A stretch of DNA of 64,000 nucleotides from a virus. Below, piece after piece: positions 38,631-57,194 of the stretch. Numbering within the stretch: position 1 is the stretch's first letter; each line of letters begins with the position of its first letter. The position numbers and the translations under genes are program-made. The notes beneath the pieces are model-generated. The model saw only the letters and a list, made by a program, of their open reading frames with translations, was not told the origin of the DNA and ran no database searches. The stretch spans positions 20,662-84,661 of the IMG/VR virus record IMGVR_UViG_3300020056_002272; one strand, written 5' to 3'.

Positions 38631-39199
38631 ACTCCAGCATTGTAACTGTCAATCTATATAGCGGTAGGAAATTACACGAATATTATAATCCGCATACTTG
38701 GGATACTTTCTGGAATACAATTAAACATTTAAAATATGCTGACAAAGTTCATTTAGTATGTTATATTGGTATTGTGCAATTAATGGAATTATCTGATTTA
38801 GTCAAAGCAGTAATAGATTTGGAGTGTGATACAGTGCAGTTTGTAATATTAGAAAAGGAACAAAATCCTGCATTGTTATATGAAAAATTTGAGTCACATG
38901 TCAACGGAGAAATTGCGATTGCAAAAAATATTGTAAAAAAATTTACAAACAAACGCTATCAAAATTTTAATGAAACAAAATTATTAAACACATATAACAA
39001 TAATACTTGGGATGATGTTGTAGCACTTAAAAATTTATTAATAAGTTTAGAAGAATTATTCCAAAATCCTGTAAAAAACAGTGACGAATATTGGAGACAA
39101 TTCACAGATATGTTAGTAAGCAATTTAGAAACTAAAAATATAAACGATTATGTAGATAGTTATAAACTAGTTGGAGGCGAAATATATTCAAATGTTTGA
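38627..39199 (+). CDS. Hypothetical protein
   Basis: 190-aa ORF with an ATGA overlap. Confidence 0.7.
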   Translation: MNSSIVTVNLYSGRKLHEYYNPHTWDTFWNTIKHLKYADKVHLVCYIGIVQLMELSDLVKAVIDLECDTVQFVILEKEQNPALLYEKFESHVNGEIAIAKNIVKKFTNKRYQNFNETKLLNTYNNNTWDDVVALKNLLISLEELFQNPVKNSDEYWRQFTDMLVSNLETKNINDYVDSYKLVGGEIYSNV

Positions 39200-40016
39200 A
39201 CAAAACAATAAACTATATGACAAATTGCACAAAGATTTGATACGAACAAATATAAATGGATTAGACATAATGTTTGATTCAAAATGGAAGCGTATTGGCG
39301 TAAATTTGAGCGGCGGCGCTGATAGTTGTTTGCTTACTTATTTGCTCTGTAAAATTATATCGGATAATAATTTAGATACAAAGATTGATGTAATTACATA
39401 TCAACGATGTTGGGAAACTAGACCATGGCAAGGGTATGTAAGTTTAGAAGTTTATAATTATCTATGTAATTTATTCCCAAATATATTAGCAAATAGATAT
39501 ACTACTTTTATACCTCCAGAATTGGAACACGGTGCTATTGGTCCTATAATAAACGGCAGAAGTGTGGACCAAGTAATTGTTGGTAGTTTTAATAAATTTG
39601 CATCATGGAATTATAACTTAGATGCAGTTTTTAATGCAACTAGTAAAAATCCAGATGATACTCGCAGTGATCGTATGCAAAATAGAGATAAAGATGCAGC
39701 AGACGGAAAGCTAATAGACTTGTGGATTTATGCAAATAAACTTAATACAGTATTTGCTCATCCTTTTAGATTTGTAAAAAAAGATTGGATTGTAGCTCAG
39801 TATCATATTTTTGAGATTTTAGATTTATATAATACAACACGCAGTTGTGAAGGAGATATAAATCATAATCATGCAGTATCTGATGTTTGCAAGGATTTTA
39901 CAGAATATTCAGACGGTATGCATATTCCAATATGTAACGAATGTTGGTGGTGCGAAGAAAGAACCTGGGCAGAATCGCAAGTTGAAAATGTAATTAAGGA
40001 AATATATGAGCTTTGA
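39192..40016 (+). CDS. QueC-like PP-loop ATPase (paralog 2)
   Basis: LSGGADS PP-loop; TRSCE...CNECWWC Zn motif. Start is ATG39192 or TTG39171. Confidence 0.7.
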   Translation: MFEQNNKLYDKLHKDLIRTNINGLDIMFDSKWKRIGVNLSGGADSCLLTYLLCKIISDNNLDTKIDVITYQRCWETRPWQGYVSLEVYNYLCNLFPNILANRYTTFIPPELEHGAIGPIINGRSVDQVIVGSFNKFASWNYNLDAVFNATSKNPDDTRSDRMQNRDKDAADGKLIDLWIYANKLNTVFAHPFRFVKKDWIVAQYHIFEILDLYNTTRSCEGDINHNHAVSDVCKDFTEYSDGMHIPICNECWWCEERTWAESQVENVIKEIYEL

Positions 40017-41181
40017 TACAATAGATTTACTTACCGGAAAGGTATTTCAAGTAACTTGGGACACAGGCAGACGCTGTAATTATGATTGCAGTTATTGTCC
40101 TGCGCATAGGCATGACAATTTTAGTAAACATGCTACACTTGAAGAACTTAAAAATAATGTTGATTTTCTATTTGAATATGTAGATTTGCATATGAACTAT
40201 CTAAAGATAAAAAAAGCAAGTTTTGGTTTTACAGGTGGCGAGCCCACAGTAAATCCAAACTTTATTCCATTCGCACAGTATTTAAAACAGCAGTATGAAG
40301 AAAAATATTCAGATAGTTGGTATGCAGGTTTCGCTCTTACTACTAATGGCGCAATGAGTGAAAAGATGGGCCAAGCAGTAATGGAAAATTTTGGACATGC
40401 TACTGTAAGTTATCATGCCGAAAGCGATAACAAACTGAAACAACAGGTTAAGGACCGTATAAAACAATTTTATTTACAAGGTCCATCACACGAATTTACT
40501 GTAAGTGTCAATGTAATGTTTCATGCTGCTTACTTTGACGAGTGTAAAGAGTTGTGTGATTATTTGCATGAGCTTGGAGTTAGCTACGTTCCTAGAATTA
40601 TAGGAGAAGAGCCAGATAGTAAAAGTAATTTTGCTCATCAATATACTGATGAACAATTAGATTACATGAAAAATTATTGGAAATACAAAAATGAAAAGTT
40701 AAATGAAACAGCTGAGGAAACAAATATTTTAAGTGCGGCAGGAAAAAAGACATCAGAAGGTAAAAAACTAGGATTAACAATAGGACGTCCGTGTTGCGGA
40801 AGTAGAGAAATGTGTCTTAGCAAAGATGGGGAAAGTAGAAATGCTACTTTTGTAGACTTTAGAGAATTCAAGGGCTGGAATTGCAGTGTAAACTGGTTCT
40901 TCCTACATTTAGAACAACAAACAGATAGCATTTACCATCATCAAACCTGTCAAGCTCGGTTTGATAAAACTAGAGGACCTATTGGTAAAATTAGTGAAGG
41001 TAAAAAATTAGTAGAAGATTTACGTAAAAAAATGGAATCCGGAACTTTGCCAACTGTTATTTGTCCGAAACAAACATGCGGTTGTGGACTGTGTGCTCCA
41101 AAAAGTTTATACAAAGATAAATTTTTAGAAGTTTTAGGAAATCATTTAGATTTAGGAGTGTTAGATGATTATAACAGGTAA
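40006..41181 (+). CDS. Radical SAM protein
   Basis: CNYDCSYC; FTGGEP; Cys-rich C-terminus (FKGWNC, CPKQTCGCGLC). Confidence 0.9.
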   Translation: MSFDTIDLLTGKVFQVTWDTGRRCNYDCSYCPAHRHDNFSKHATLEELKNNVDFLFEYVDLHMNYLKIKKASFGFTGGEPTVNPNFIPFAQYLKQQYEEKYSDSWYAGFALTTNGAMSEKMGQAVMENFGHATVSYHAESDNKLKQQVKDRIKQFYLQGPSHEFTVSVNVMFHAAYFDECKELCDYLHELGVSYVPRIIGEEPDSKSNFAHQYTDEQLDYMKNYWKYKNEKLNETAEETNILSAAGKKTSEGKKLGLTIGRPCCGSREMCLSKDGESRNATFVDFREFKGWNCSVNWFFLHLEQQTDSIYHHQTCQARFDKTRGPIGKISEGKKLVEDLRKKMESGTLPTVICPKQTCGCGLCAPKSLYKDKFLEVLGNHLDLGVLDDYNR

Positions 41182-41719
41182 CAAGACAGAAGGCGTTGCC
41201 GGCGCTTTAGCAAAATTATATCCTGATGCTGAATTTTGCAGTAGACAAAACGGGTTTGATTTCGGACGTAAAGCCGACCAAGAAAGGCTTGCTGACCTTG
41301 TGTGTCATCATGATATATTTGTAAATTGTGCTGCTTTGTTTAAATTTAATCAGACTACGCTTTTAAACATAGTATATCACAAATGTGTGTTAGAAAAGCA
41401 TAATTGTCACATAATAAATATAGGCAGCACAACGGATCGTGTTAAAAAAGGTGGCGCATGGTTGTATAATGCTGAAAAGAAAGCATTACAAGATTATTCA
41501 AATACATTAGGCTTGACAGGTGTTTGGGCAAGTGGACCAAAAGTAAGTTACATTAGTTTTGGAACATTGAGTAACAATGCAGAAAAGCATCCTGAGCGAA
41601 AATTACTAGATATTGACAAAGCAGCACAATATATAAAATGGATAGTTGAACAACCAAAAGATTTAGTAATTAATGAGCTAAGTATAGATCCTATGCAACC
41701 GGAGTTTTGGCACAAATGA
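41165..41719 (+). CDS. Short-chain dehydrogenase/reductase (compact)
   Basis: IITG...G Rossmann start, FVNCA, INIGS, YNAEK (YxxxK). Confidence 0.75.
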   Translation: MIITGNKTEGVAGALAKLYPDAEFCSRQNGFDFGRKADQERLADLVCHHDIFVNCAALFKFNQTTLLNIVYHKCVLEKHNCHIINIGSTTDRVKKGGAWLYNAEKKALQDYSNTLGLTGVWASGPKVSYISFGTLSNNAEKHPERKLLDIDKAAQYIKWIVEQPKDLVINELSIDPMQPEFWHK

Positions 41720-42939
41720 ATGACATAGACAAGGTATACTGCCCATTGCCCTTTAGGGCATTAGCATTTAAAGAATTTATAAATGGAAAATTATCAGGTG
41801 CTACGCCTTGCTGTATGATGCTTAACACGCTAGATGACGGATTTGAAGATACAACTAAAAGATTTGAAATACCTAATGTAGAAAATTTAACACCAGATGA
41901 AATTTTCAATAGCGAACGTATGAAAGAACTGCGACAAAACATACTTAATGGTAAAAGAGATTCGGCCTGTAAGGTATGTTGGCAAGCAGAAGACAGAGGC
42001 GTTAAAAGTTATAGAGAATATATGAAGGCCGATGAGGTAAATTTTGAACCTAAATTACGAGAAATAGATCTAAGTATTAGTAATGTTTGTAATTTAGCAT
42101 GTAGAATGTGTGCTCCTACAAATAGCAACTTGTTACAAAAAGATCATAAGTTTTTTAAAGACAATGGTAAGTATGGAGAAATATTAAAAGCAACAAATGG
42201 ACGTTGGTATACTAGTTTTCCATATGATGGCGCAAAATCAAAGCAATGGCACTGGATTGTTGAAAATATACAACACTTAGAAACATTAAAAATGTCAGGC
42301 GGCGAGCCATTTTACGATAGAAAAGTAATAGATCTTTTACAAATGTGTGTTGACAAAGGCTATGCAAAAGATATTTCGCTAGAATTTCACACCAATACTA
42401 TTTGTTTTGACGATAAAATTATTGGATTATTAAAAGAATTTAAAAATAGACACACTTTTAGTATAGACGGAGTTGGAAAAGTATATGAATACATCAGGCA
42501 TCCAGCAACATTTGAGCAGCTTGATGCAAGTTTACAATTATATGTCAAACACATGCCTCAAAAAATGTTGCACATAAATTATGTTGTTTCTATACTTAAT
42601 GTTTTTAGCACAATTGATTTTTTAGACTACATGGAAAGTTTAAATGTTGAATATCATGTGTTTTTCAGCGAGGTATTTCCTAATACCAGAGGCACAGGGT
42701 TGCGGCATTTAAGTTATGATTTACTTGAGCAAGCACACTGCCTTGTTTTAGACAATTTTGACAAATATGGCAAAGAAACTATGGTAAGATTAGAACAAGT
42801 TGTTAAAAATGCAAAAGAAAAATGCAATACAAACCAATCTCTGGCATTAAAAGAGGTAAAATTATTTGATGAAAGTCGTAATCAGTCTTATGAAGATTAT
42901 TTGGATAAAAGAATTTGCGAGTGGTTGAATGGAAAATAA
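41716..42939 (+). CDS. Radical SAM protein with N-terminal twitch-like domain
   Basis: YCPLPF..PCC..CKVC; CNLACRMC; SGGEP. Start taken as ATG41716 (ATGA overlap). Confidence 0.9.
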   Translation: MNDIDKVYCPLPFRALAFKEFINGKLSGATPCCMMLNTLDDGFEDTTKRFEIPNVENLTPDEIFNSERMKELRQNILNGKRDSACKVCWQAEDRGVKSYREYMKADEVNFEPKLREIDLSISNVCNLACRMCAPTNSNLLQKDHKFFKDNGKYGEILKATNGRWYTSFPYDGAKSKQWHWIVENIQHLETLKMSGGEPFYDRKVIDLLQMCVDKGYAKDISLEFHTNTICFDDKIIGLLKEFKNRHTFSIDGVGKVYEYIRHPATFEQLDASLQLYVKHMPQKMLHINYVVSILNVFSTIDFLDYMESLNVEYHVFFSEVFPNTRGTGLRHLSYDLLEQAHCLVLDNFDKYGKETMVRLEQVVKNAKEKCNTNQSLALKEVKLFDESRNQSYEDYLDKRICEWLNGK

Positions 42940-43894
42940 CGCTTGGTCTACTAAAACACTAGAATGGATAGATATAGAACTTACCAGTTTTTGCAATATC
43001 AGGTGTAAAGGCTGTTTTAGAGTCCTATCGGAACATGCAGATAAAATTTTAAACACAACCTACTTAGATTTAGAAACAATACAAAATAAATTTAAAAAAG
43101 AAATGTTTCCAAACATAAGAATAATTAATTTTTGCGGAAGTGTAGACGAACCTTGCAGCCATCCCCAATTTTTTGATATTGTAAAACACTTTGCAACATG
43201 GAATTGCCACATCAATATTGCCACCAATGGTAGTTTACGAACAACACAATGGTGGGAAACACTTGCAAAAATACTGCCTAAAAGTCATAGAGTAACTTGG
43301 GGCATTGATGGTAGTGATGAACTGTCTGAAGTGTATAGAGAAGGTAGTAATTTCAAAAAAGTCCAAGAAAATTTTAGGGCTTTTATTAAAGCAGGCGGAC
43401 AAAGTGTATGGCAATTTATTAGTTTTGAGCATAATGAACATCAACTTGAATCTGCAAAAAAACAAGCAAAAGACGAAGGGTTTAAAGATTTCAAAACTAT
43501 AATCAGTCATAGAGAAGATACAAAAGATATTAAACACAAAAGAGAAAAAAGAGATCCAAATCCTCAGCCTCGTCCTTGCATTAGTTGCAAGTATGCCAAT
43601 CAAAAAAGGATCTTTGTAAATCATATGGGCAATGTAATACCTTGTTGTCACTTAAACAGTAAAATGTTAGAGTTTCCTGTAAGCGGTGCTATACATGATA
43701 AATTTGAGAATTTATTGATTGAACATGATTACGAAAATGATATAAATTTAAAAAATGTTAGTATTGAGCAGGCAATGAACGGCAAAATATGGAATGACAT
43801 ACAATCTAGTTGGACAGATAATGAACGTATACCTCGTTGCGAGCATGTATGTGCAGAAAAGAAGAGAGATAAGTTTTTAAAAGAAAAACTTTGA
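42929..43894 (+). CDS. Radical SAM protein with C-terminal SPASM/twitch domain
   Basis: CNIRCKGC; WGIDG; FEHNEHQ; IPCC..CEHVC. Confidence 0.9.
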   Translation: MENNAWSTKTLEWIDIELTSFCNIRCKGCFRVLSEHADKILNTTYLDLETIQNKFKKEMFPNIRIINFCGSVDEPCSHPQFFDIVKHFATWNCHINIATNGSLRTTQWWETLAKILPKSHRVTWGIDGSDELSEVYREGSNFKKVQENFRAFIKAGGQSVWQFISFEHNEHQLESAKKQAKDEGFKDFKTIISHREDTKDIKHKREKRDPNPQPRPCISCKYANQKRIFVNHMGNVIPCCHLNSKMLEFPVSGAIHDKFENLLIEHDYENDINLKNVSIEQAMNGKIWNDIQSSWTDNERIPRCEHVCAEKKRDKFLKEKL

Positions 43895-43919
43895 CAAAAA
43901 TAGCATTGGTTAGTATAAT
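43891..43919 (+). promoter_or_regulatory. Sigma70-type promoter, perfect consensus (leaderless transcript)
   Basis: TTGACA(43891-96, overlapping the upstream TGA stop)-17-TATAAT(43914-19); ATG at 43925 with no SD. Confidence 0.85.
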
Positions 43920-43924
43920 ATAAT

Positions 43925-45043
43925 ATGAGCGAAGATCTAAAATGGAGTAACTATGATTTCACCAAAATCCCCTTTGACAATATTGTGTCTGTTGGGCAAC
44001 GCACTTTGCTGTATCGTGATATTTTTACTGTATCCTGGTTACTGGGCAGATTTTGCAACTACCGTTGCTCTTACTGCTGGCCCTACGCCAGAAGTGATCG
44101 TAAAGACCACCGACCTACCGAGCTCTGTTTACTCACAGTGGATGAAATTAAACGACAAGCCCGGAATAACGGATTTAATAGCTTTCATTTTAGCCTTAGT
44201 GGGGGTGAACCTACTTTTCATCCCGGTTATCTGGACATACTTAGCCACCTTGCTGAAGATGTAGATAACACTAATTATACCAGTGTTCATATGACATCAA
44301 ACTGTTCAAGAAATATGAAATGGTTTGAAACTTATGTAGAACGTGCAAAACCCTTTCATAGAGCAAGTATTACAGCAAGTTTGCACACAGAACATTTAGA
44401 TACAAAGGAGAAGATGCAGGACTTTGCAGACAAGTTAATCCTGTGTCAAGAGCATGATGTTCAAATTACAATTAACATGGTTATGGTGCCTGAATGGTTT
44501 GAAAGAGACTGGGAAAATGCACTGTTCTTTCATGAGCAAGGAATCAACGTTACCCTCAAACCACAATCGGATCCTACTGCATCACGTGTGGTCGACGGAT
44601 ATAAAGAAGAAGATTTAAAACGACTTTGGAATGGAATGCCACAACGTGCATACACAGAGAGCAAACGTAAATGGTCTGATCGTCCTAAGCCTAAATTTGA
44701 AATACCAAAAGATGTTATGCATAAGCCAGATGCTAGTGTGCCATGGCATTTTCAAGTAGAATTTAGAGATAGTGAAGGCAAGGCATGGTATATGGATCAA
44801 GCAGAACGTTTTAATGCATTTAACTTCAACAAATTCAAAGGATGGAATTGTAATGCAGGTTATCAAGGTATTATTATACGTGAACCTGATGGCAGTATAA
44901 AACGTTCCTATAGTTGTCATGACGTGCCTTTGGGAAATATAGAAACAGGATTTAAATTGTTTGATAAAGCAATGCCCTGTATTACAAATAGTTGTGTAAG
45001 TAGTGCAGATAGTAAGATACCTAAAAGGAAAGTAAATCAGTAA
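43925..45043 (+). CDS. Radical SAM protein (paralog of 40006)
   Basis: CNYRCSYC; LSGGEP; FKGWNC; C-terminal Cys cluster. Confidence 0.9.
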   Translation: MSEDLKWSNYDFTKIPFDNIVSVGQRTLLYRDIFTVSWLLGRFCNYRCSYCWPYARSDRKDHRPTELCLLTVDEIKRQARNNGFNSFHFSLSGGEPTFHPGYLDILSHLAEDVDNTNYTSVHMTSNCSRNMKWFETYVERAKPFHRASITASLHTEHLDTKEKMQDFADKLILCQEHDVQITINMVMVPEWFERDWENALFFHEQGINVTLKPQSDPTASRVVDGYKEEDLKRLWNGMPQRAYTESKRKWSDRPKPKFEIPKDVMHKPDASVPWHFQVEFRDSEGKAWYMDQAERFNAFNFNKFKGWNCNAGYQGIIIREPDGSIKRSYSCHDVPLGNIETGFKLFDKAMPCITNSCVSSADSKIPKRKVNQ

Positions 45044-45075
45044 AATCTAGGTATATATAATGAAAGGAATAAAAT

Positions 45076-45309
45076 ATGACTGACATAGCCGAAAGAGTAA
45101 AAAAAGTTATAAAGGAATCATTAGCTAAAGATTCAGTGACTGAATCATCTAATTTTATAGACGACTTAGGCGCCGATAGTCTTGATGTCGTAGAGATTGT
45201 AATGGATTTAGAAGAGGAATTTGGCATTACAATTGAAGATACTGATGCCGAACATATAAGAACTGTAGGCGATGCTATTGAATTTTTGGAAAAAATATTA
45301 AATACATAA
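45076..45309 (+). CDS. acpP: Acyl carrier protein
   Basis: 77-aa acidic protein with the DDLGADSLD phosphopantetheine site, EEEFGI.I.D and TVGD motifs; AAGGA RBS. Confidence 0.95.
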
Positions 45310-45322
45310 TATAGGACAATAA

Positions 45323-46048
45323 ATGATCAAATATTCTCATGCTATTTTTATTTTACAAATAATTGCTTATTGTAGTATTATACCAATGTTGTTATATGCA
45401 GATTGGTATCATTATATTATAGCAATTTTAATTTATTTTTTAAATGGTTGTTTAGGAATGATAATGGGATATCATAGACTTGTCACTCATAGAAGTTTTG
45501 AAGCACCGGTATGGTTTGAAAAAATGATTGTATTGTTTGCTACAATTGGTTTAACTGGACCTGCTATTGATTGGGTAGCAATACACAAAGCGCATCACAG
45601 ATATGCTGATACAGAAAAAGATCCACACTCCCCAGATTATTTAGGAAAATTTAGAGTGCATTTTTTGACTATGTTTGCAAACGTTAATCCAAAATATGCA
45701 GGCCGCATTCTCAAAAATACATTTTATAGGTTTCAGCGCAAATATTATTTTTTAATCAATATATTGTATGCTGTATGTCTTTATGCTGTTGACCCGTTTG
45801 CTGTAATTTATGCTTGGTTATTTCCTGCTGCATTAGTGATAGGGTTTGGCACAGCTATCTTGAGCACTTCGCACAGGAAAAACAAGCCGCATAATGATTT
45901 TATATTAGCAATATTGACTTGGGGTGATGCATTCCATGAGGAGCATCACGATCATCCTAATAAAGCAAGATTACACAAATGGGATATCACAGGAATAATT
46001 ATTGAAACTTTTTTCAAAACTAAATACACAACAAAAGATGCAAATTGA
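45323..46048 (+). CDS. Membrane-bound fatty-acid desaturase (delta-9-like)
   Basis: His boxes HRLVTH, HKAHH, HEEHH; DPHSP; hydrophobic segments. Confidence 0.9.
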   Translation: MIKYSHAIFILQIIAYCSIIPMLLYADWYHYIIAILIYFLNGCLGMIMGYHRLVTHRSFEAPVWFEKMIVLFATIGLTGPAIDWVAIHKAHHRYADTEKDPHSPDYLGKFRVHFLTMFANVNPKYAGRILKNTFYRFQRKYYFLINILYAVCLYAVDPFAVIYAWLFPAALVIGFGTAILSTSHRKNKPHNDFILAILTWGDAFHEEHHDHPNKARLHKWDITGIIIETFFKTKYTTKDAN

Positions 46049-46054
46049 GGATAT

Positions 46055-46207
46055 ATGGGCTGGAAAGGCATAGGAATCAAACCTAATCAGTTGTCTTTTT
46101 GGCAGATAGATTATGCAATAAGATACGGCATACTTTTTAAAAACTTAGAGGAATTAGATGAATACCTGGAAAAAAAGAACCGAATTACCTGTATACAAAC
46201 AGCTTAA
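46055..46207 (+). CDS. Small hypothetical protein (50 aa, not in ORF track)
   Basis: GAGG RBS and ATG46055; translates to MGWKGIGIKPNQLSFWQIDYAIRYGILFKNLEELDEYLEKKNRITCIQTA; fills an otherwise empty gap. Confidence 0.45.
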   Translation: MGWKGIGIKPNQLSFWQIDYAIRYGILFKNLEELDEYLEKKNRITCIQTA

Positions 46208-46883
46208 ACAATTTCAGTTTGATCCAAAACTGTTAGTGGAAGCATATGAAGAATTTACTTCAAATAAAGTCTGGGACGGGCTGGGTAACGAATATTCGAA
46301 CATGTGCAAAACATATACTAATTTACCAAGTATGTTTTTTCCAGAAGACGAGTTAAAGGGTGTAACTTGTATTACCGAATTAGATTTTGAACAAACAAGC
46401 TATAAGCAAATTAGTTTGGTAGGATTTGATGAGAATTACAATTTATCTCAACGCAAAGAAAAATCAGGAACACGATGGGATAATCAAATTGCAAAAAACA
46501 ACCCAAAAGCTGATGAAAGATTTTTTAGGAAGCGCAAAGATGATGTGCCAGAATATTTTAATTATGTATTAGACACTATTGGTAGAGATGTTGTTCACCG
46601 CACACGATTTGCAAATTTAATGCCCAAATCGTCAATTGATCCACATATTGATTATAATACAGAATATGGTGTTAGACTGCATATACCTATTATAACAAAT
46701 GATGGTTGCACTTTTGGAGGAATAGATCCAACTACTGGTGAAACAAAGGAAAGACATTTTCCAGCAGATGGTAGTGTATGGTTTATCAATCCAGGAGTAA
46801 AGCATTGGGCAACTAACGACGGTGATGAAGAAAGAATACATTTAATTGTAAGTGTAGATAGTCAGGAGATTTTAAATGATTAA
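46158..46883 (+). CDS. Fe(II)/2OG oxygenase, Asp/Asn beta-hydroxylase (LpxO-like) family
   Basis: PHID...RLHIPI.TN...H.ATN...RIHL. Confidence 0.8.
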   Translation: MNTWKKRTELPVYKQLKQFQFDPKLLVEAYEEFTSNKVWDGLGNEYSNMCKTYTNLPSMFFPEDELKGVTCITELDFEQTSYKQISLVGFDENYNLSQRKEKSGTRWDNQIAKNNPKADERFFRKRKDDVPEYFNYVLDTIGRDVVHRTRFANLMPKSSIDPHIDYNTEYGVRLHIPIITNDGCTFGGIDPTTGETKERHFPADGSVWFINPGVKHWATNDGDEERIHLIVSVDSQEILND

Positions 46884-47721
46884 AGGTGCAATAGGATCGG
46901 GAACAATGACGCCATTAGTTTGGCGCATAAAAGCATTGAATATAAGTTTTCTTATTGGAGTGTTAAGTATTCCTTTTTTCTTTTCTTGGAACTGGTTACT
47001 TATAGGATTGTTTGTAACATTTTGGTTTGAGGTCCTTGTAGGTAATGGATATTGTCACAGGTATTATGGCCATAAAACTTACGAGCCAAAACCTTGGTTG
47101 AAACCGATACTAGACTTTTTAGTGCATTACCAGGGATTTGGAAGTTTATTAACATGGAAAGCGTATCATATCAGACATCATGAGTTTAGTGATGAAGCAG
47201 AGGATAGTCATAATCCTCAACATGGAATAAAATATATCTTTAGTGGCGCTTGGGGACAGTTACCAAAAGAATACTACGCTGAACAATTAAAGGATCCTGT
47301 CTTAGTTTGGTATCATAGGAATTATTGGAAAATGCATGTGGCTATTAGTATATTCTGGTTAAGTTTAGGATCTATATTAGCTGGAGGATTTGATCCTAGA
47401 TTTTGGATTTTCTTGTATGCTATGCCTGGTTTATATGCTGTGGTAAGTGCATATGTTTTAATCTACGGACCTCACGTAGATGGAGAACCTGTTGACCGTT
47501 GGTGGCTAGATTTTTATACATTCGGCGAAGGTAATCATTTGTATCATCACATATATCCGTGGAGTTATCGCTTCGGTAAATGGGACATTACAGGCTTTTT
47601 AATAGAAAAATTAACTATGAAAAAAGATCCTGAAAAAATAGCAGCAGTGAGACAATCATGGATAGACCATTGGGGATATGAAAATGGATATGGACAAGCG
47701 TATAAAAAAGCACCTAAATGA
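46876..47721 (+). CDS. Membrane-bound fatty-acid desaturase (second copy)
   Basis: His boxes HRYYGH, HIRHH, HLYHH; DSHNP; GEG.H. Confidence 0.9.
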   Translation: MIKGAIGSGTMTPLVWRIKALNISFLIGVLSIPFFFSWNWLLIGLFVTFWFEVLVGNGYCHRYYGHKTYEPKPWLKPILDFLVHYQGFGSLLTWKAYHIRHHEFSDEAEDSHNPQHGIKYIFSGAWGQLPKEYYAEQLKDPVLVWYHRNYWKMHVAISIFWLSLGSILAGGFDPRFWIFLYAMPGLYAVVSAYVLIYGPHVDGEPVDRWWLDFYTFGEGNHLYHHIYPWSYRFGKWDITGFLIEKLTMKKDPEKIAAVRQSWIDHWGYENGYGQAYKKAPK

Positions 47722-48310
47722 TGTTTATACAAATTTAGAAGGCAACCCTACTGATTTTTTAATACCAGTTCCATCTTTAGATGCATACATAAGTTCAAAT
47801 GATTTTATATCTGTATACAATGAAGTGACTACAGATAAAAAAGACAGATACGCATATGGACACAAAATATATGCTGACGATTTTCCTGTGTTTGATAGAT
47901 TACGTGAAGCTTATCCTGCTTTTAAAGATTATTTCTTTTTTCTCAAAACAAATAGAGTAGTAAAAACATATCCTATACATATTGATGGTCCTGGCGAATT
48001 TGATTCTAAAGCAGGCGTAAACTGGCCTTTAATAAATTGCGATGAGCAAAGTGATACAGTGTGGTATGAGCCTGAGGAGCATGATTTTTACTATCATGAA
48101 GTCCAAAATAGTATATTTTTAAAAGATAATGTAAAAACAAAAGAAATATATAAATTTCATTTTGTTGATCATACACCTCATTTGTTTCGCGGCGATGTGT
48201 GGCATACTGGCATAAACCATAAACATCAAAGAGAATTTAGAGTAATGGTTAAGTGGGAGCTCACTGTAAATAATTGGCAAGAGGCGCAAAATGCACTTTT
48301 TATTGCCTAA
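47678..48310 (+). CDS. Putative cupin Fe(II)/2OG oxygenase
   Basis: IHIDG..NWPL...T.WY...WH..N....R pattern. Confidence 0.5.
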   Translation: MKMDMDKRIKKHLNDVYTNLEGNPTDFLIPVPSLDAYISSNDFISVYNEVTTDKKDRYAYGHKIYADDFPVFDRLREAYPAFKDYFFFLKTNRVVKTYPIHIDGPGEFDSKAGVNWPLINCDEQSDTVWYEPEEHDFYYHEVQNSIFLKDNVKTKEIYKFHFVDHTPHLFRGDVWHTGINHKHQREFRVMVKWELTVNNWQEAQNALFIA

Positions 48311-49508
48311 TGACAAAGAAGTAACTGATTTCCGTGCTAGACTATATGAAGAAGATTTTGGTATATCTGCATCGTATTTAAGCAAATTTCAATACAAGAG
48401 CGATTACGATGACGAATTTGCTGGGCATAAAGATTTAGAAGATATTTACAAATATAGTGATATAAAATATTTAAACAGTGGCATTGAACAAGTTTTGATG
48501 ACTGAAGATAGAACAATGATATCTGGCGGAACCTTCTTTGACGGAGAGTATTATCGTGCAGGACATTTAGTATACTGTTTGAAAAATTATCGAAAGCAAA
48601 ACTACAGTTGGATGTATCAGGACTTTGGTGCATTATACGGTCATATTAAAAGAGCAATAGAATTAAATATTCCTAAGGTAATAATGTGTCACTGGCCGCA
48701 TAACTCTCGTATAAGAGCAAACATAGAAAACCACAAAAGAAAACTTATTGGAAGGCACTTGCATTATTTTATGCAAATGGAGCATTTAGGTGCCTGGAAT
48801 GTTAATGAGGTAGAGCAAGAAGTTTTTGTTTATGATATTCCTAAACGTTTTAAGGAAATTGAAAAATTCACAATGACTGAAAATATTTTACCAATGGGAG
48901 AATATGAAACTTTACCGGTTACTTCTAAATATGGTAATACTCCCGAAAAATATGGATGTGTTGTAAAATTAAATATTGACCCAATTGATCATGAACAAAT
49001 TCGTCACGACATGCATACGTTTAAAGAAACAAAAAAACATTATTTTCAAGAACGGTTGGATATATATAAAGTTCCGCCTAGTGTAGCGGCGAATTACCTC
49101 AAATACGTAGGATTTTCGGGAGAAACCTATGATAGCACAGGTTTAAATATCACTGGCACAGCAGAGCTTGACCCTAATATACCTAATAGTATTTTAGAGG
49201 CATACAGTAAAGTTCAATCTAAATTGTTTAGGCAAAATTTTGTAGTTGCAATGAACGGATGGAATACAAAATGGCATAGAGATCATTCCACACCATTAAT
49301 GCATGGATTTAGATTAATGATACCGATTGATCCTGTTGTTATGTATTTTAGAACTGGAAAAGTAGAATTGCAGCCAGGACATTATTATTTTGTTAATAAT
49401 AGTTTAGAACACAAAGGATCATTGCCAGATGGATACGAAAGAAGAGCAAATCTAATGGCACAAATGGATAGCGATATTGATATTTTAAATGGTGATATTA
49501 TTTTATAA
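48291..49508 (+). CDS. Two-domain protein: N-terminal GNAT-like domain and C-terminal Asp/Asn beta-hydroxylase-like oxygenase
   Basis: C-terminal WHRD..RLMIPI..G..YF.N...H....R. The N-terminal YR...VY....YR..A.ELN pattern is only tentatively GNAT. Confidence 0.55.
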   Translation: MHFLLPNDKEVTDFRARLYEEDFGISASYLSKFQYKSDYDDEFAGHKDLEDIYKYSDIKYLNSGIEQVLMTEDRTMISGGTFFDGEYYRAGHLVYCLKNYRKQNYSWMYQDFGALYGHIKRAIELNIPKVIMCHWPHNSRIRANIENHKRKLIGRHLHYFMQMEHLGAWNVNEVEQEVFVYDIPKRFKEIEKFTMTENILPMGEYETLPVTSKYGNTPEKYGCVVKLNIDPIDHEQIRHDMHTFKETKKHYFQERLDIYKVPPSVAANYLKYVGFSGETYDSTGLNITGTAELDPNIPNSILEAYSKVQSKLFRQNFVVAMNGWNTKWHRDHSTPLMHGFRLMIPIDPVVMYFRTGKVELQPGHYYFVNNSLEHKGSLPDGYERRANLMAQMDSDIDILNGDIIL

Positions 49509-49510
49509 TA

Positions 49511-51907
49511 TCATCCACGATCAAATCTTTGTGCATTTTTAAAAGTGATTGCATTCTTAATAGTAATACCTTGTTTGACTGTGGTGTTTCTTCTCGGAAA
49601 AGTAGTTTGTTGGATTTTTGTTCCATCTTGATAGCCTACTTTTGCTGAGCCGCCTTCTAAACTATTATAATCATTCCAGTTACTATCTGTAGAACTAGTA
49701 GATTCTGTTCCTGGATAAAAATCGCTAGAGTCTTGATTATCTAAAGAGTTTATATATGAAAGAACATCAGTATAAGTCCAGTTTCTATTCAGGCCTACAA
49801 GAGTAGAAATAAAACCTGCTGCAACAGGACAGGCAGCACTTGTTCCGCTGAAAGCACAATCTTCTGGCACACCCGAACCACTACCACTGTCGGCTGTGAA
49901 GCCAGGGTATACATCAGGATAGCGTCCTTCGCTAGTATAAGCTCTGTTTGCAGCTAATGTTCCATCTGCAGGCATGTAAAAATCAATACCATTGCCTCTA
50001 TCACTGTAATTTACTTTACGCTCTCTATTACCTGAGCTAGTATCATAATCATCGTCTAGCGCACCTATGTTAATAGTTTTGTAAGAAACAGGAGCACTGA
50101 TAACAGTAATGGTTCCGTTCATGCCGTTATGCGCACTACATTGGTAATAGTAAATACCTACATCGGTAGGTGTCCAACTTATTGTTGCACCACTATTAGC
50201 ACCTTGCCCTGTTGCACCTGTAACTTGATCTCCTGTGCCAGTGCCTTGCACAGTTTTGAAATACATTGGATGACTTGCACTTGCATTGTTGGTAATAGCA
50301 ATTGTATCGCCAGCAGCTATCCTTATATCTGCATTATCGCCTGCAACAGAACCATCTCTATCATTGCCGTTACTCAATGTATATGCAACACTGCCGTTGT
50401 TTGTTGCATCAAGAGTGTATGATGCAGTAGGACCTGTGGTTTTGCCACCTTGTTGCGGAAAGCCTCGTCTGTTAGTAGATCCTGTTACTTCTACGCTAAA
50501 TTCTGTAAAACTACTTTCTTCTAGTGTGTCTGTATTATTACTTGCGATATAATTATCGAAATCTTGGTGTCCCCAGTTAGTTTGTTTCTGATTACTGTTT
50601 CCAGCAGCACATACGAATAACACACCACTATCTATGAGTTCATCTAGGGCTGTAGTTAGCGAGTTGGTTTTCATTTCGCTTTTCCAACGCCCTAAATCGC
50701 CTGTGACACCCATGTTAGAAATAAATTCTGGTTCGTCGCCTGTGCCGCCATATGCCACTGGATCAGCGCCTCTAAAGTGGTAATATACTCCACCTTTGTT
50801 TGCTCTATATCCCCAGCTATTTGAACTTACTGTAGGATCTTGTGTTTTGTATTTTGAATTAATTGGTTTTGACTGATGGAAGATTTTTTGCATATCAAAT
50901 CCGGGTTCAATATCAGCACCGCTGGCTCCATACAAGTTTAATACCCACTTATTAGCATTGTATGCCCATCCTTGCGTTCTGCCGTATGTAAGTGCCATAC
51001 AAGGGGTGCAGTGGGTGCCTACAGCGCTCTGTGCAGTGTTGCTACCGTTACAAGTAGATCTTGTATATGCAGAATCTATAGTCGCTGTAGTGCCTACGCT
51101 AGGATGTCTTGCATTAAATTCGCTACTGCGATTGCTTGTGCTACTCCACCATCCTCTTGCAAAACTTTCTACAGGAACAGTTGTGCCGTCCCAACGTGTT
51201 GTCAATCTATTGCCTGCATCAGCATCAAAGTATTCTGGATCTAAATAATATGGTGCATCTAAACACAAGTCTAATACATCGCACGTTCCGTTGCCTGGTA
51301 ATTTGTTTCCGCCTGTATAGTCCGCTGGTGCAACACTATTTGAACAATTGTTTTGAAATTCAGGATGCCCTATCCATCCACCCCCGTCGTCTGCAACAAT
51401 TACGTCTACATCTCTACCGTCAGCATATTGCGATATATTACTAGGGTAAACATAATTATCTGCTTGTGAATTATCTACCCACGGGTCTAGCTTTTGCATT
51501 GGACGAAGCAATTGATATCCTGTTCTGTTTATATCTGTTGCATCTGGTGTGCCTGGTAGTGTGTTTGATGTTTCAAACTCTCTATAGTTTTTGACTGTTC
51601 CTGCATATCGTTCTAAAATTTCTGCAGGAGTTGACTGTAACTCTTCTGGTGGCGGTTTATAAGTTTCGGGGTAACTTGTATAGTCGATGTTTATCCATTT
51701 TATACGTGCATCTGCTTTTAAAGCCGTTGCTTCTTCGTCTGTTAAAAGAAAAATACCTCTTGTAGGACTGCCTTCTTTATCGTCTGTGCAAGTGCAAGCT
51801 CTGTCGGGTATATTTGCTATTCCATCTGTTGCACCGCATAAATCGTCGTGTATTGCTTGCCATTGTTCGGCAGTGTGTGTTCCTAACTGGTAATATTTTT
51901 CAGCCAT
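49511..51907 (-). CDS. Subtilisin-like (S8) serine protease with cupredoxin-like insertion, probably virion-associated
   Basis: Catalytic D (VIVADDG), H (GTHCT), oxyanion AAGN and S (FSGTSAACP); inserted SHP...YYYQCSAHNGM module. Confidence 0.8.
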   Translation of the reverse strand: MAEKYYQLGTHTAEQWQAIHDDLCGATDGIANIPDRACTCTDDKEGSPTRGIFLLTDEEATALKADARIKWINIDYTSYPETYKPPPEELQSTPAEILERYAGTVKNYREFETSNTLPGTPDATDINRTGYQLLRPMQKLDPWVDNSQADNYVYPSNISQYADGRDVDVIVADDGGGWIGHPEFQNNCSNSVAPADYTGGNKLPGNGTCDVLDLCLDAPYYLDPEYFDADAGNRLTTRWDGTTVPVESFARGWWSSTSNRSSEFNARHPSVGTTATIDSAYTRSTCNGSNTAQSAVGTHCTPCMALTYGRTQGWAYNANKWVLNLYGASGADIEPGFDMQKIFHQSKPINSKYKTQDPTVSSNSWGYRANKGGVYYHFRGADPVAYGGTGDEPEFISNMGVTGDLGRWKSEMKTNSLTTALDELIDSGVLFVCAAGNSNQKQTNWGHQDFDNYIASNNTDTLEESSFTEFSVEVTGSTNRRGFPQQGGKTTGPTASYTLDATNNGSVAYTLSNGNDRDGSVAGDNADIRIAAGDTIAITNNASASHPMYFKTVQGTGTGDQVTGATGQGANSGATISWTPTDVGIYYYQCSAHNGMNGTITVISAPVSYKTINIGALDDDYDTSSGNRERKVNYSDRGNGIDFYMPADGTLAANRAYTSEGRYPDVYPGFTADSGSGSGVPEDCAFSGTSAACPVAAGFISTLVGLNRNWTYTDVLSYINSLDNQDSSDFYPGTESTSSTDSNWNDYNSLEGGSAKVGYQDGTKIQQTTFPRRNTTVKQGITIKNAITFKNAQRFDRG

Positions 51908-51916
51908 GCTGTTCCC

Positions 51917-53782
51917 TTAAACTATTGGACTTGTATCTAATCTTACCCAAGAACCGTTTTGGTATACTTGGTATCTGTTGTCATCTGTGTTGTATATCAT
52001 ATCACCATTTTCAGCACTTAATGCATCTCTTTGTGCATCTGTCAAGTTTGCTAATTTAAACGGTGATTGTGTAACTTCTACTCTTGTGCCTGCTGTAAGT
52101 AAAATATCTGTAGCTGACTCAAGTTCAGGAGTTCCTGCACCGGATGTGATAATGTTTTCTACTTCGATTGTATCTGCTGTAATTTTGTTTGTAACAGTAA
52201 GATTATTTTCGACTGTAAGATCACTACTGATCAGCATTGAAGGTGTAATGGTAATTTGGCTACTGTCACTTGTATCTAAGACACTGCCTGTAAATGTGAA
52301 CGACCCTACATCTGCTGTAGTAATTGCATCTGTAATTCCATATCCTGCTACAGTAGTAGGTGTTCCTGTAAGCGAACTAAATGCTCCGTCGAACAATGTA
52401 GGAGTTCCTGTAAGATCGCCATATGCACCACTTGTAGCCACTGCGGCTAGTGTAGGTGTGTTTGTATGGTTATTGTAATCTAAGTAGTATGATGGATATT
52501 GTCCATCAAGTGTAACTGCGTCACTGGCAGGAGCAGGTGCTGCACTACCTCCAGATACATATGCTGTATATGCTGTTCCGTCTACAGTGCTGGTCAAACC
52601 TGCATCACTGTAAAGTGCAAAGGTATCAAGTGTTAAAGTATCAACAAAATAGCTGTTACCGTTTAGCTCTGTCATACCAACAACATCAGTAATAGTTACT
52701 TTCTGTCCATCACCAAAACCGTGTGCTGCACTTGTTGTTACAACAACCGGATTTGCTTGTGTAGCGCCGCTAACCGTCGCTGCACTACCGCCTGAGCCTT
52801 GTAAATCTGCACTAGCAATCCAGCTAGCACCATCAAATTTTAACACATCGCCTACTGATGCAGTTCCTGCACCTAGCACTGCATATGGAATTTCGCCATT
52901 TACACCATCTACTAAAATTGTGCTATCATCTGCTACAAGTGTTCCTTTGTAATTTCCTACGAAACTAGGCGCTGTGACAGTGCCAGTAAATACTCCGCCG
53001 CCCCTTACATCTAGTGTCTGAGCTGGAGTCTGGGTGCCTAAACCTAATTTTTCATCTCTCCATATCATAGTTGATGATTCAGGAAAAGCACTAGTTGAAT
53101 CAGAATAAAAAACTATAAAATCATTACCACCATTTATACCTGCAGTGGTTACAGCACCATTTAAATCTTCTCTTCCAAAATATATACTACCATATTGTAG
53201 AGGATCTGCAGAAATATCGCCAGCCGATCTACGCATAAGATCAAGTGCTGCGAAGCCATCATCTGAATATACATTAATATTGTAGTTGCCTGTGTTAGCA
53301 TTATCTATTGATATGTCACCCTCGCCTTCCATAAAGGCTACGTTAAAATGTTTTGTTGCAGCATTTACAAGAACAGTAGTATCTGTAGCCACCAAATTAC
53401 CAACTACCTGTCCTTGAAATTCACCTGTAGCGATAACATTTACACCTTCAATATTGGATTCACTTGATATACTACCTGTAAGATCAATATCTCCAGGGCC
53501 GGCTAATATTGTTCCTGTATCTAGATATATGTCATTTGTAAATGTAGATTGTATATCAGTAAGTGATAGAACAGTTCCTGTTGCTGTAGATTCGATGCCT
53601 GTTATGCTGCCACCACCGCCGGAGCCGTTACCAACTGCTATTCCTCCTATAGAGCCGCCTTCGCTTTGTAGGCCATTACCTACAAATACTTGTTCAAGGT
53701 CTATATCATAGACTAGTTCGCCTTCTTCAAAGTAAAGCTGGGTTCTATCAGCTGTGCTTCCTCGTTTCAGTCGCAATGCCAT
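51917..53782 (-). CDS. Tail fibre-like protein (mosaic)
   Basis: N-terminal LRLKRG...GEL.YD.D...+.VG.G (Mtd/hyaluronidase-type N-cap), FCCH-like module, LAAVATSG.Y.DL and PTT.AGYGITDA fibre repeats. Confidence 0.75.
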   Translation of the reverse strand: MALRLKRGSTADRTQLYFEEGELVYDIDLEQVFVGNGLQSEGGSIGGIAVGNGSGGGGSITGIESTATGTVLSLTDIQSTFTNDIYLDTGTILAGPGDIDLTGSISSESNIEGVNVIATGEFQGQVVGNLVATDTTVLVNAATKHFNVAFMEGEGDISIDNANTGNYNINVYSDDGFAALDLMRRSAGDISADPLQYGSIYFGREDLNGAVTTAGINGGNDFIVFYSDSTSAFPESSTMIWRDEKLGLGTQTPAQTLDVRGGGVFTGTVTAPSFVGNYKGTLVADDSTILVDGVNGEIPYAVLGAGTASVGDVLKFDGASWIASADLQGSGGSAATVSGATQANPVVVTTSAAHGFGDGQKVTITDVVGMTELNGNSYFVDTLTLDTFALYSDAGLTSTVDGTAYTAYVSGGSAAPAPASDAVTLDGQYPSYYLDYNNHTNTPTLAAVATSGAYGDLTGTPTLFDGAFSSLTGTPTTVAGYGITDAITTADVGSFTFTGSVLDTSDSSQITITPSMLISSDLTVENNLTVTNKITADTIEVENIITSGAGTPELESATDILLTAGTRVEVTQSPFKLANLTDAQRDALSAENGDMIYNTDDNRYQVYQNGSWVRLDTSPIV

Positions 53783-53790
53783 ATCAAATT

Positions 53791-53831
53791 TCTCCTACAG
53801 TGGTGTTTTATATATTTATCACTATTAGAGA
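53791..53831 (-). promoter_or_regulatory. SD-sequestering hairpin with late motif GATAAATA (53820-53813) at the loop
   Basis: Minus-strand arms TCTCTAATAGTG and CACTGTAGGAGA pair at 11 of 12 positions (2 G.U) and cover AGGAG. Confidence 0.65.
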
Positions 53832-53835
53832 TTTA

Positions 53836-54402
53836 TCAAAACTTATCAATACAAAAAACAAGATGAACTCTATTGTTTTTGCTGGCATTGATAGCTGTAT
53901 GTGGTTGTCTAGTGTCAACTATATATGTTTTTCCAAAAGGCAATCTAAATACCTTATCTTTGATAACCATAAAGCAATCATCGTTTGTATATATAGGAAT
54001 ATGCAATCTTGGAGAAGGATCTTTGTGCATAGTCAAACAGGTTTTGTAAATACTTTTCATAAATCTGCCTCTATACACATTATAACCTGCGTTTTTAATT
54101 TTTTCTATAATGGTATCAAAATATGTGTTTTTGAAATAGTCGCAGGTTTGATTTATTTCAGTTTCAACAAGCATATCAGTGCGTAAAGGAACATCGCCAT
54201 TGCCGTCATAGTTTACCCAGTCGTAGTATAAACTTCCTGTAGATTCATATAGTTGATTTTCAATAGCACACTCGGATCTAGCTTGTATTGCGATTTGTTT
54301 TAGGTGGTCTGCTTCAACAAGTTTTTGATCTATATCTAATTTGTTATACTCGTCAAGCATGAGAGTATAGTCTATATCGATATCTATTTCTTTTATCAGC
54401 AT
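53836..54402 (-). CDS. Fe(II)/2OG oxygenase, Asp/Asn beta-hydroxylase family
   Basis: MHKD..RLHIPI.TN...HTAINA...RVHL. Confidence 0.8.
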   Translation of the reverse strand: MLIKEIDIDIDYTLMLDEYNKLDIDQKLVEADHLKQIAIQARSECAIENQLYESTGSLYYDWVNYDGNGDVPLRTDMLVETEINQTCDYFKNTYFDTIIEKIKNAGYNVYRGRFMKSIYKTCLTMHKDPSPRLHIPIYTNDDCFMVIKDKVFRLPFGKTYIVDTRQPHTAINASKNNRVHLVFCIDKF

Positions 54403-54406
54403 ACCA

Positions 54407-54706
54407 CTATTTATTGAGTTTTAAAAACCGATTGGTTCGCTTACTAATATCAGTTTTAAGTCGTTCTAAATCTAGTCTAAAATCTACAGTTGATATTGTT
54501 TCTTCGTATTCATTAAAAAATTCGTCTAGAACAGTTTCGGGATCGTCACCAAGATCCCGATTCATCATATCAATTTCCCAAATCGTTTTATCCTGAAATG
54601 TAACCACTAAAGTGTTAACATAGTCTAGCGGGATGTAGTCCATGTTAATTTCACGAAATATATTTTCCCAATAATCTTTTCCGTGCTGTGGTTTTCTATT
54701 AGGCAC
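54407..54706 (-). CDS. Hypothetical protein
   Basis: The ORF-track start (54853) overlaps the upstream gene. GTG54706 or ATG54643 is more plausible. Confidence 0.55.
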   Translation of the reverse strand: MPNRKPQHGKDYWENIFREINMDYIPLDYVNTLVVTFQDKTIWEIDMMNRDLGDDPETVLDEFFNEYEETISTVDFRLDLERLKTDISKRTNRFLKLNK

Positions 54707-55605: not shown

Positions 55606-55893
55606 TTATTCGTATTTTAAATGTGGACAAGCAAGTAGAAAGAAACTTAATTCTTTTTTTGATTCAAAACCAACTGTGTATACACTTTGTATACTGTGCA
55701 TTTGTTCGTCTTCTTTTAAACCTACATTTTGTCCAAAAAAGTAACGTCCGCTTAAATGATCCTCAATCCATTCGCAAATTGCTCTTTCTAAGTTATAACG
55801 CCTTGCAACATCAGTAGTTGCAAAGGTAGGAGGGCAAAATTTTACCCTCCTAAGTCGCAAGATATCTAAAGGATTGGGATCTTTTAACTTCAC
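55606..55893 (-). CDS. Hypothetical protein
   Basis: 95 aa, GGAGG RBS, GTGA overlap. Confidence 0.7.
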   Translation of the reverse strand: MKLKDPNPLDILRLRRVKFCPPTFATTDVARRYNLERAICEWIEDHLSGRYFFGQNVGLKEDEQMHSIQSVYTVGFESKKELSFFLLACPHLKYE

Positions 55894-57164: not shown

Positions 57165-57194
57165 GATAACCTCTAATTTCAGTGCCTATGTTTC

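Follow-up and report, generated by a model that had tools for sequence, protein, structure and literature searches.

Organization of a desaturase-oxygenase block in a giant marine phage

We analyzed a 64,000-nucleotide (nt) stretch of viral DNA, hereafter the window, which covers bases 20662-84661 of the 84.6-kb IMG/VR contig IMGVR_UViG_3300020056_002272, and focused on a 5.6-kb block at positions 43925-49508 of the window. All eight open reading frames (ORFs) of the block are read on the plus strand and encode, in order, a radical SAM enzyme, an acyl carrier protein (ACP), a fatty acid desaturase (Des1), a 50-residue protein, an AspH-family hydroxylase, a second desaturase (Des2), a cupin resembling 2-oxoglutarate (2OG)-dependent oxygenases, and a fusion of a GNAT-like domain with an AspH-type domain (Table 1). 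This gene order, behind a perfect sigma70-type promoter, had been reported in the first-pass annotation of the DNA and is confirmed here, as are the family calls, including that of the terminal fusion. CheckV puts the completeness of the contig at 23%, which implies a genome of ~370 kb; the GC content of the window is ~34%, and the isolates that best match a gene neighbouring the block are PA5oct-like and other jumbo phages. The source is an uncultured giant marine phage, and the block forms the distal, operon-like end of a ~30-kb tailoring island located between virion genes and tail-fibre genes. A blastn search of the block against 50,697 phage records returned no match, and no tRNA genes that could serve as a host clue are present in the window.

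The intergenic gaps measure 32, 13, and 109 nt and the other junctions overlap by 8 to 44 nt, a layout typical of an operon; ribosome-binding sites precede the ACP gene (AAAGGAA) and the Des1 gene. The promoter is the sole 12/12 match in the 15.5 kb scanned (39000-54500). Its -10 box ends 5 nt from the ATG of the radical SAM gene (window 43914-43927), and the N-terminus that begins at this ATG is kept in orthologues; thus, the mRNA would be leaderless, or nearly so, at the first gene of the operon.

Table 1. Features of the block, the island, and the neighbouring genes (window positions; aa, amino acids; pLDDT, predicted local distance difference test; pTM, predicted template modelling score)
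Feature	Position	Strand	Evidence or remark
Sigma70-type promoter, TTGACA-17-TATAAT	43891-43919	+	12/12 match
Radical SAM enzyme, 372 aa	43925-45043	+	Pfam Radical_SAM, E 6.8e-15
ACP, 77 aa	45076-45309	+	PF00550 PP-binding, E 1.1e-12; DSL serine (GADSLD)
Des1, 241 aa	45323-46048	+	PF00487 FA_desaturase, E 3.8e-11
Small ORF, 50 aa	46055-46207	+	No family; peptide conserved
AspH-family 2OG/Fe(II) hydroxylase, 241 aa	46158-46883	+	PF05118 Asp_Arg_Hydrox, E 5.6e-12, 46.2 bits vs 22.6
Des2, 281 aa, divergent paralogue	46876-47721	+	PF00487 FA_desaturase, E 4.2e-8
2OG-oxygenase-like cupin (double-stranded beta-helix), 210 aa	47678-48310	+	AlphaFold pLDDT 85.7
GNAT/AspH-type fusion, 405 aa	48291-49508	+	AlphaFold pLDDT 95.5, pTM 0.91
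Fourth AspH-family hydroxylase, 188 aa	53836-54402	-	PF05118, E 7.1e-9, 36.1 bits
Upstream part of the island	24282-43894	+	Pfam; about eight additional radical SAM/SPASM genes
Two QueC-like PP-loop genes	37740-38630, 39171-40016		Upstream island
SDR-like gene	41165-41719		Upstream island
Giant ORF, 4880 aa	1-11755		Contig 17774-32416
Large structural-looking genes	12390-19644
Subtilase	49511-51907	-	Peptidase_S8 with inserted plastocyanin-like copper-binding domain
Tail-fibre-like protein	51917-53782	-	Mtd_N and E1_FCCH-like domains
DUF2201 metallopeptidase/VWA-like protein and MoxR-type AAA ATPase	55890-58356	-
GTP cyclohydrolase I beside weak radical SAM match	62198-63091, 63252-63950	-	GTP cyclohydrolase I, E 1e-39

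A virus-specific desaturase paired with an AspH-family hydroxylase

Both desaturases exceed the PF00487 cut-off of 29.7 bits (43.7 bits for Des1 and 33.7 bits for Des2). Des1 carries the His boxes HRLVTH, HKAHH, and HEEHH and about 4 hydrophobic segments, and Des2, which also has transmembrane segments, carries HRYYGH, HIRHH, and HLYHH. A profile built from 23 Des1 relatives matches stearoyl-CoA desaturase (SCD) 1 (4ZYO) at E 8e-20 and also 4YMK (human and mouse enzymes), and the residues H51, H56, H88, H91, H92, H184, H205, H208, and H209, invariant in the 23 family members, align to the SCD1 ligands. Judged by these features, Des1 and Des2 are predicted to be intact integral-membrane di-iron desaturases of the SCD (delta-9) type, and the acyl-chain theme proposed in the first-pass annotation fits this match to SCD and the retention of every di-iron His. 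The likeness to SCD1 extends to the three His boxes with the extra His and to the four membrane segments, whereas Des1 is shorter (about 240 aa, compared with at least 320 aa in SCD1) and the phage block is devoid of a cytochrome b5 partner gene.

Relatives of Des1 are widespread among viruses: 163 homologues of about 235-245 aa were found in aquatic metagenomes, and more than 570 IMG/VR contigs encode one. The best cellular match, among one genome each of 185,579 prokaryote species, is 31% identical, and Des1 belongs to a virus-specific family of short desaturases. No fused forms turned up among the longer proteins, although this is weak evidence.

A first clustering of the genes neighbouring the desaturase in 83 viral loci and the window (84 loci, 40 dereplicated groups) identified an AspH-like cluster as the one dominant partner, present in 36 loci and 22 groups. 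A gene of this cluster is directly adjacent to, and on the same strand as, 28 of the 102 desaturase genes (15 of the 40 groups). When the desaturase family was sampled a second time and families within 10 kb were counted with our own hidden Markov models (HMMs), AspH was found in 81 of 157 viral desaturase loci, ahead of two radical SAM families (rSAM-A, 42; rSAM-C, 32), TauD (19), QueC-like proteins (18), the GNAT N-domain (10), and ACP (5). By comparison, an AspH-like neighbour was found in none of the 80 best cellular desaturase loci, and the same holds for ACP (0/80).

The order desaturase-AspH-desaturase seen in the window, where the start of Des2 overlaps the hydroxylase stop by 8 nt, recurs in locus L009. 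A longer order, desaturase, AspH, cupin, any gene, a second AspH (AspH2), any gene, desaturase, TauD, is also shared between loci, for example L005 and L006, which derive from T4-like marine myophages with UvsX, gp41, and ThyX. The pair formed by an SCD-type desaturase and an AspH-family hydroxylase, rather than the ACP, is thus the old, virus-specific evolutionary core of the block.

The small ORF between Des1 and the hydroxylase is part of the same arrangement. It lies two codons past the stop of Des1, in the Des1 frame, and shares 50 nt with the start of the hydroxylase gene. L005 and L006 encode a similar peptide (…FW..DYA..YGI…L.ELDEYLEKKN; 48% over 44 aa, E 1e-9) in the equivalent position, so that the ORF is likely to be a genuine small gene of the module.

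Repeated association of carrier proteins with viral desaturases

The ACP of the window passes the AcpP equivalog models NF002151 (97.2 vs 92) and TIGR00517 (89.3 vs 70.45), has its best PDB match in AcpP (2N57, E 4e-22), and is 63-68% identical to alphaproteobacterial AcpP, a figure from a scan seeded by query-derived patterns, so that the taxon bias is no proof of the host. Identity to any IMG/VR ACP is at most 58%, and to other desaturase-linked phage ACPs 30-36%, while the GC and GC3 of the gene are the same as those of its neighbours. The protein is of the housekeeping AcpP type and not a dedicated carrier like JamC.

In the first sample, tblastn detected an ACP in none of the 83 viral desaturase loci, and the 12 viral loci with the nearest ACPs contained no desaturase. 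The idea of an ACP link confined to this contig was nevertheless rejected when the second sample and the ACP HMM revealed adjacency of ACP and desaturase genes in other lineages, at least 5 separate phage lineages in all. In G030, which has four desaturase genes within 20 kb, the order is ACP, any gene, desaturase, AspH, as in the window; in G018, G028, and G029 the ACP and desaturase genes overlap by 4 nt, G028 being a complete 364-kb genome; G037 has the order radical SAM, desaturase, ACP; and in G036, which shares structural genes with the window phage at up to 59% identity, desaturase and ACP genes are adjacent. Sets comparable to the radical SAM-ACP-desaturase-AspH array of the window are present in L342, L343, L349, and L350.

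All five records with an ACP no more than 10 kb from a desaturase (G030, G036, G037, G038, and G039) also encode a phosphopantetheinyl transferase (PPTase), in four cases within ~2.5 kb of the ACP. Among 107 proteins around ACP-desaturase pairs, we found 3 ketosynthases (KS), 2 FabA, 2 holo-ACP synthases (ACPS), 6 PP-binding proteins, 4 Rieske proteins, and 8 radical SAM proteins. Loci with KS, a FabA-like dehydratase, PPTase, Rieske oxygenases, and B12-radical SAM enzymes around such pairs include L349 (G028), L350 (G030), L342, L343, L302, and L325.

The desaturases with an adjacent ACP do not group together when 197 viral desaturases are placed on a tree, and only the root unites them all. 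The link is therefore rare but arose, or was refilled, independently; such independent recurrence argues for a functional tie. Hence, carrier machinery (ACP, PPTase, and sometimes KS and FabA) has joined desaturases of this kind repeatedly in unrelated giant phages, and close relatives manage without an adjacent ACP of their own. The earlier view of the block as an ACP-linked cassette holds insofar as the adjacency recurs across lineages, usually with a PPTase, but the ACP is not the conserved centre, a position that the above counts assign to AspH.

A separate context for phage ACPs was also observed: the ACP domain is C-terminal in 158-176-aa ORFs among structural or baseplate genes in L096 (G006; 9496-10026), L098 (G005; 9949-10476), and L099 (P-HM1; 11905-12381), which suggests a different use there.

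Oxygenases, the GNAT domain, and the radical SAM enzyme

The AspH-family hydroxylase has no transmembrane segment and is predicted to be soluble. No variation is seen at H163, D165, R173, and H216 across 48 relatives, R226 shows 98% conservation, and the nearest Atlas clusters are 92-100% viral. The best PDB matches are Cpz10 (7V4F, 2.4e-6), a nucleoside-antibiotic beta-hydroxylase (PMC9814697), and proline cis-4-hydroxylase. Membership in the family of LpxO, a homologue named in the first-pass annotation, was not borne out: model NF033391 gave 16.9 and 16.0 bits against a cut-off of 500, aligning to the catalytic core only. LpxO carries a membrane anchor, and no hydrophobic segment of this type is present in any of the hydroxylases of the block. 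The fourth hydroxylase, which adjoins the tail-fibre gene, belongs to the same cluster as that of the block, and its homologues flank a desaturase in G006, L005, and L011.

The 210-aa cupin has no Pfam, NCBIfam, or PHROG match. Foldseek aligned its predicted structure to KanJ, ALKBH5, and MINA53 (E 2e-4 to 5e-4, TM score about 0.4). Within the family, H101, H176, R188, and K192 are invariant and the H-x-D…H…R pattern is evident, the Asp being kept in all but one sequence; homologues come after AspH in L005, L006, and L016.

The fusion protein likewise has no Pfam match of its own. Its residues 1-186 adopt a GNAT fold (VIA Z 9.8-9.9 to RimI, 2OH1, and others), to which many GNATs align with Z 9-9.9 and root mean square deviations of 3.4-4.7 over 128-150 residues (Foldseek 3D8P, E 2.4e-5). 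PF00583 matches 1 of 65 homologues (E 0.003), and QxxGxG/A is not clearly present by eye. Residues from about 195 to 405 form an AspH/Cpz10-like beta-helix (HRD…H…R; 7V4P, Z 13.7; human AspH, Z 12.0), and the assignment of this half to AspH is based on homologues, 14 of 65 of which match PF05118, together with the fold. Both halves also exist as stand-alone proteins of about 205-255 aa. In total, the segment encodes three soluble oxygenase domains of the 2OG/Fe(II) type in which the ligands of iron and 2OG are conserved, with a fourth nearby.

A metagenome protein, P0155, consists of the GNAT-like N-domain fused to a QueC-like PP-loop ATPase, and this fusion, along with the co-occurrence of QueC-like genes, ties the block to the upstream part of the island. 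It suggests that the GNAT domain and the two QueC-like ATPases of the island share one substrate, for example in amide formation. Two candidate additional copies of the GNAT N-domain, at 37162-37779 and 38627-39199, were rejected (hhalign probability ≤0.2%, no link), and cluster 21, the gene before AspH2 in L005, has no detectable kinship with this domain.

The radical SAM enzyme contains the motif CNYRCSYC and conserved C-terminal cysteines. Its NCBIfam matches (N-terminal-twitch radical SAM, viperin, and MoaA) are partial and all far below cut-off. Orthologues with 63-77% identity lie 0-10 kb from a desaturase in L008, L016, L018, L040, and L041; that of L008, the most similar at 77%, is 24 nt upstream of the desaturase. 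As called, the L008 orthologue (8921-9955) is without the N-terminal 48 residues, including CxxxCxxC, and this ORF may be truncated, frameshifted, or mis-started.

Proposed function and alternatives

We propose that the block performs oxidative tailoring of fatty-acyl chains delivered on ACP, followed by their transfer to an acceptor, a reading to which we assign a probability of roughly 0.4. During infection, host fatty acid synthesis would make the acyl chains and ACP would carry them, the carrier being the phage ACP activated by host AcpS or, in relatives without an ACP gene, host AcpP. The two membrane enzymes would desaturate the chains, and hydroxylation would fall to the soluble oxygenases. 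Transfer of the acyl group to an amine-bearing acceptor would follow, carried out by the GNAT-type domain and possibly the PP-loop ligases encoded upstream, although acyl transfer by this domain is conjectured from its modelled fold. An SGNH protein, the other means of transfer named in the first-pass annotation, was not seen, although no search aimed at one was made. Such a pathway would yield a modified lipid, probably with an amide linkage, or a lipidated envelope component, with possible roles in cell-surface change, exclusion of other phages, or membrane stabilization.

Several observations weigh against this proposal. The substrates of the enzymes are deduced from families and folds. The ACP resembles a recently captured housekeeping AcpP and could merely boost host fatty acid synthesis; 152 of the 157 viral desaturase loci, among them those of the closest relatives of Des1 (70% identity, L004-L007), have no ACP within 10 kb, and in L008 the radical SAM orthologue directly abuts the desaturase with no ACP between them. 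G006, the closest relative with a complete genome (358 kb), encodes neither a PPTase nor a KS, and its ACP gene adjoins a structural gene at a distance of 95 kb from the desaturase gene. PPTase (PF01648), acyl-AMP ligase (PF00501), and KS (PF00109) were not found in the 84.6-kb contig, which represents ~23% of the genome; the absence of PPTase and AMP-binding ligase noted earlier for the window thus extends to the whole contig. The best matches to the GNAT fold are ordinary acetyltransferases, and acyl-ACP-using GNATs were not singled out in the fold search, all GNAT rows being tied at Z about 9-10. The AspH-like proteins are nearer to small-molecule amino-acid hydroxylases (Cpz10 and proline hydroxylases) than to LpxO. 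Finally, among the characterized relatives of these desaturases, SCD1 uses acyl-CoA rather than acyl-ACP. The viral fatty acid desaturases (vFADs) of cyanophages, for their part, use acyl-lipids and not acyl-ACP (PMC5776448).

A broader version of the proposal, which we regard as somewhat unlikely, holds that giant aquatic phages own a virus-specific pathway yielding a so far undescribed desaturated and hydroxylated amide-linked lipid on a carrier protein, or a lipidated envelope or virion component. The product would alter the surface of the infected cell or the virion and so affect host recognition or the exclusion of competing phages, and ACP, PPTase, KS, and FabA would be swapped around a fixed desaturase-hydroxylase core.

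Unlikely, in our estimate, is a general remodelling of host envelope lipids with no dedicated product, in which the desaturases would act on membrane glycerolipids in the manner of cyanophage vFADs and the AspH-type enzymes would, like LpxO and OlsC, hydroxylate the acyl chains of lipid A, aminolipids, or phospholipids, while the ACP, as an auxiliary AcpP, would sustain fatty acid and lipid A synthesis. The lack of an ACP in most desaturase-AspH loci, the housekeeping type of the window ACP, and the resemblance of the KS, FabA, and PPTase of other phages to general parts of fatty acid synthesis are all consistent with such a role, as are the weak LpxO HMM matches and the family PF05118 itself, which includes LpxO and OlsC. 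Furthermore, the only phage desaturases tested are delta-9 acyl-lipid enzymes (PMC5776448), and comparable pelagimyophage islands contain genes related to lipopolysaccharide (PMC7029224). However, the desaturase family is not host-like, with no more than 31% identity across the 185,579 species genomes, the LpxO scores are far below the cut-off and the hydroxylases are without a membrane segment. Control of fluidity alone would hardly account for a GNAT fusion, PP-loop ligases, and numerous radical SAM genes, and the independent recurrence of ACP-desaturase adjacency also counts against this reading.

Protein or peptide modification is the next candidate, and we consider it improbable. Here, tail fibres, the 4880-aa protein, or a peptide would be matured by the S8 protease together with the AspH-type, GNAT, and SPASM/twitch radical SAM enzymes, the peptide being one resembling ribosomally synthesized and post-translationally modified peptides, and the desaturases and ACP would at most supply a lipid tag or be unrelated neighbours. 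The location of the island between virion and tail-fibre genes points in this direction, as do the presence of protein N-acetyltransferases among the best GNAT fold matches, the usual role of SPASM-type radical SAM enzymes as peptide maturases, and the S8 peptidase that adjoins the block. AspH is a core gene of pelagimyophages, in which such islands are termed host recognition clusters (PMC7029224), and for dioxygenases of this kind Iyer et al. predicted substrates among peptides or in the tail collar (PMC2938197). Yet integral-membrane desaturases cannot act on proteins and are the most constant neighbour of the hydroxylases, with translational overlap; moreover, no precursor peptide was identified, and the AspH-like proteins have their nearest relatives of solved structure among enzymes with small-molecule substrates.

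The conversion of a short ACP-bound acyl chain to an alkyne or polyyne by desaturase/acetylenases, as in JamABC, TtuABC, or caryoynencin-type pathways and as raised in the first-pass annotation, is highly improbable: although the ACP gene immediately precedes that of a His-box membrane desaturase, with a second desaturase in the same operon, the ACP passes AcpP equivalog cut-offs, the desaturases are of the delta-9 SCD type with a hydroxylase rather than a ligase as their constant partner, no JamA/CayA-type fatty acyl-AMP ligase is present on the contig (~23% of the genome, so the absence is not final), and no thioesterase turned up in Pfam scans of the island genes.

Relation to known systems

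The JamABC and TtuABC cassettes and those for bacterial polyynes (cay and pgn) resemble the block in having an ACP that adjoins membrane desaturases, whereas they have no link to a hydroxylase. Ornithine-lipid and aminolipid tailoring involves OlsB, a GNAT-type N-acyltransferase that uses acyl-ACP, OlsC of the AspH family, and the di-iron hydroxylase OlsE. These systems, together with LpxO, thus combine the same kinds of components as the block, namely, ACP, a GNAT fold, AspH-family hydroxylases, and His-box di-iron membrane enzymes. They differ in that the OlsHI-type ACP model gave 16.9 bits vs 130, the GNAT domain of the window has no specific likeness to GNATs that use acyl-ACP, and no OlsA-like gene was seen. 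Compared with the ACP-desaturase sets of other giant phages, the window is distinguished by an ACP that is a host-like AcpP, placed within a module that has no ACP in its nearest relatives. Phage ACPs as such are an already known family (PHROG 5934).

A close precedent is provided by the cyanophage vFADs (Roitman et al., ISME J, PMC5776448), which are likewise His-box membrane desaturases of the delta-9 kind, encoded in marine myophage-like genomes and interpreted as auxiliary genes that alter host lipids. As described, vFADs are single, host-derived, and DesC-like, whereas the window encodes two copies of a virus-specific family, coupled to AspH-type hydroxylases, a GNAT domain, a radical SAM enzyme, and an ACP.

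In genomic context, the block resembles the host recognition clusters of pelagimyophages and cyanomyophages (PMC7029224), large, hypervariable, non-syntenic islands among tail-fibre genes that contain radical SAM, AspH-like, TauD, GNAT, and glycosyltransferase genes. In Pelagibacter phage Mosig (MT647606), AspH is directly followed by FA_desaturase, and GNAT by AspH, beside the tail fibres. The gene complement of P-HM1 and P-HM2 includes an S8 peptidase, two AspH, ACP, ACPS, and TauD (PMC3037559), although the ACP of P-HM1 is located among baseplate genes. Tandem dioxygenases are also known in cyanophages (PMC2938197). These phages are T4-like, with genomes of 140-180 kb, compared with ~370 kb for the window phage, and the papers on the clusters neither describe the desaturase-hydroxylase pair as a unit nor link it to ACP. 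Our literature searches returned no description of a desaturase-AspH unit or of its repeated coupling to ACP, PPTase, or fatty acid synthesis genes in phages.

Phage lipid desaturases have so far been known as single, host-derived genes for membrane fluidity, whereas the family described here is virus-only and paired with virus-only hydroxylases. The recurrent pairing and the added carrier machinery point to a chemistry of lipids or acyl transfer, so far undescribed, that operates while abundant marine bacteria are infected, which is relevant to how large phages reshape the cell envelope and offers a source of new oxygenases. Comprising eight genes in 5.6 kb, the block is compact enough for a direct test in which it is expressed and the lipids are analyzed by mass spectrometry.

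The upstream island and neighbouring genes

The block is one end of a larger island, ~24282-49508, with approximately nine radical SAM genes. In addition to the genes listed in Table 1, Pfam searches identified a glycosyltransferase-like gene and an inverted TauD cassette in the upstream part.

The giant ORF at the beginning of the window is followed by the large structural-looking genes, and homologues of the genes of this region also flank the desaturase/ACP island in L343 (G036). On the other side, the subtilase gene and the tail-fibre-like gene that adjoins it (49511-53782, minus strand) are convergent to the block. Further downstream, the DUF2201 protein, 46% identical to proteins of the PA5oct group of jumbo phages, adjoins the MoxR-type AAA ATPase, and the GTP cyclohydrolase I gene and the gene beside it could belong to a 7-deazaguanine (queuosine-like) pathway separate from the QueC-like genes of the island.

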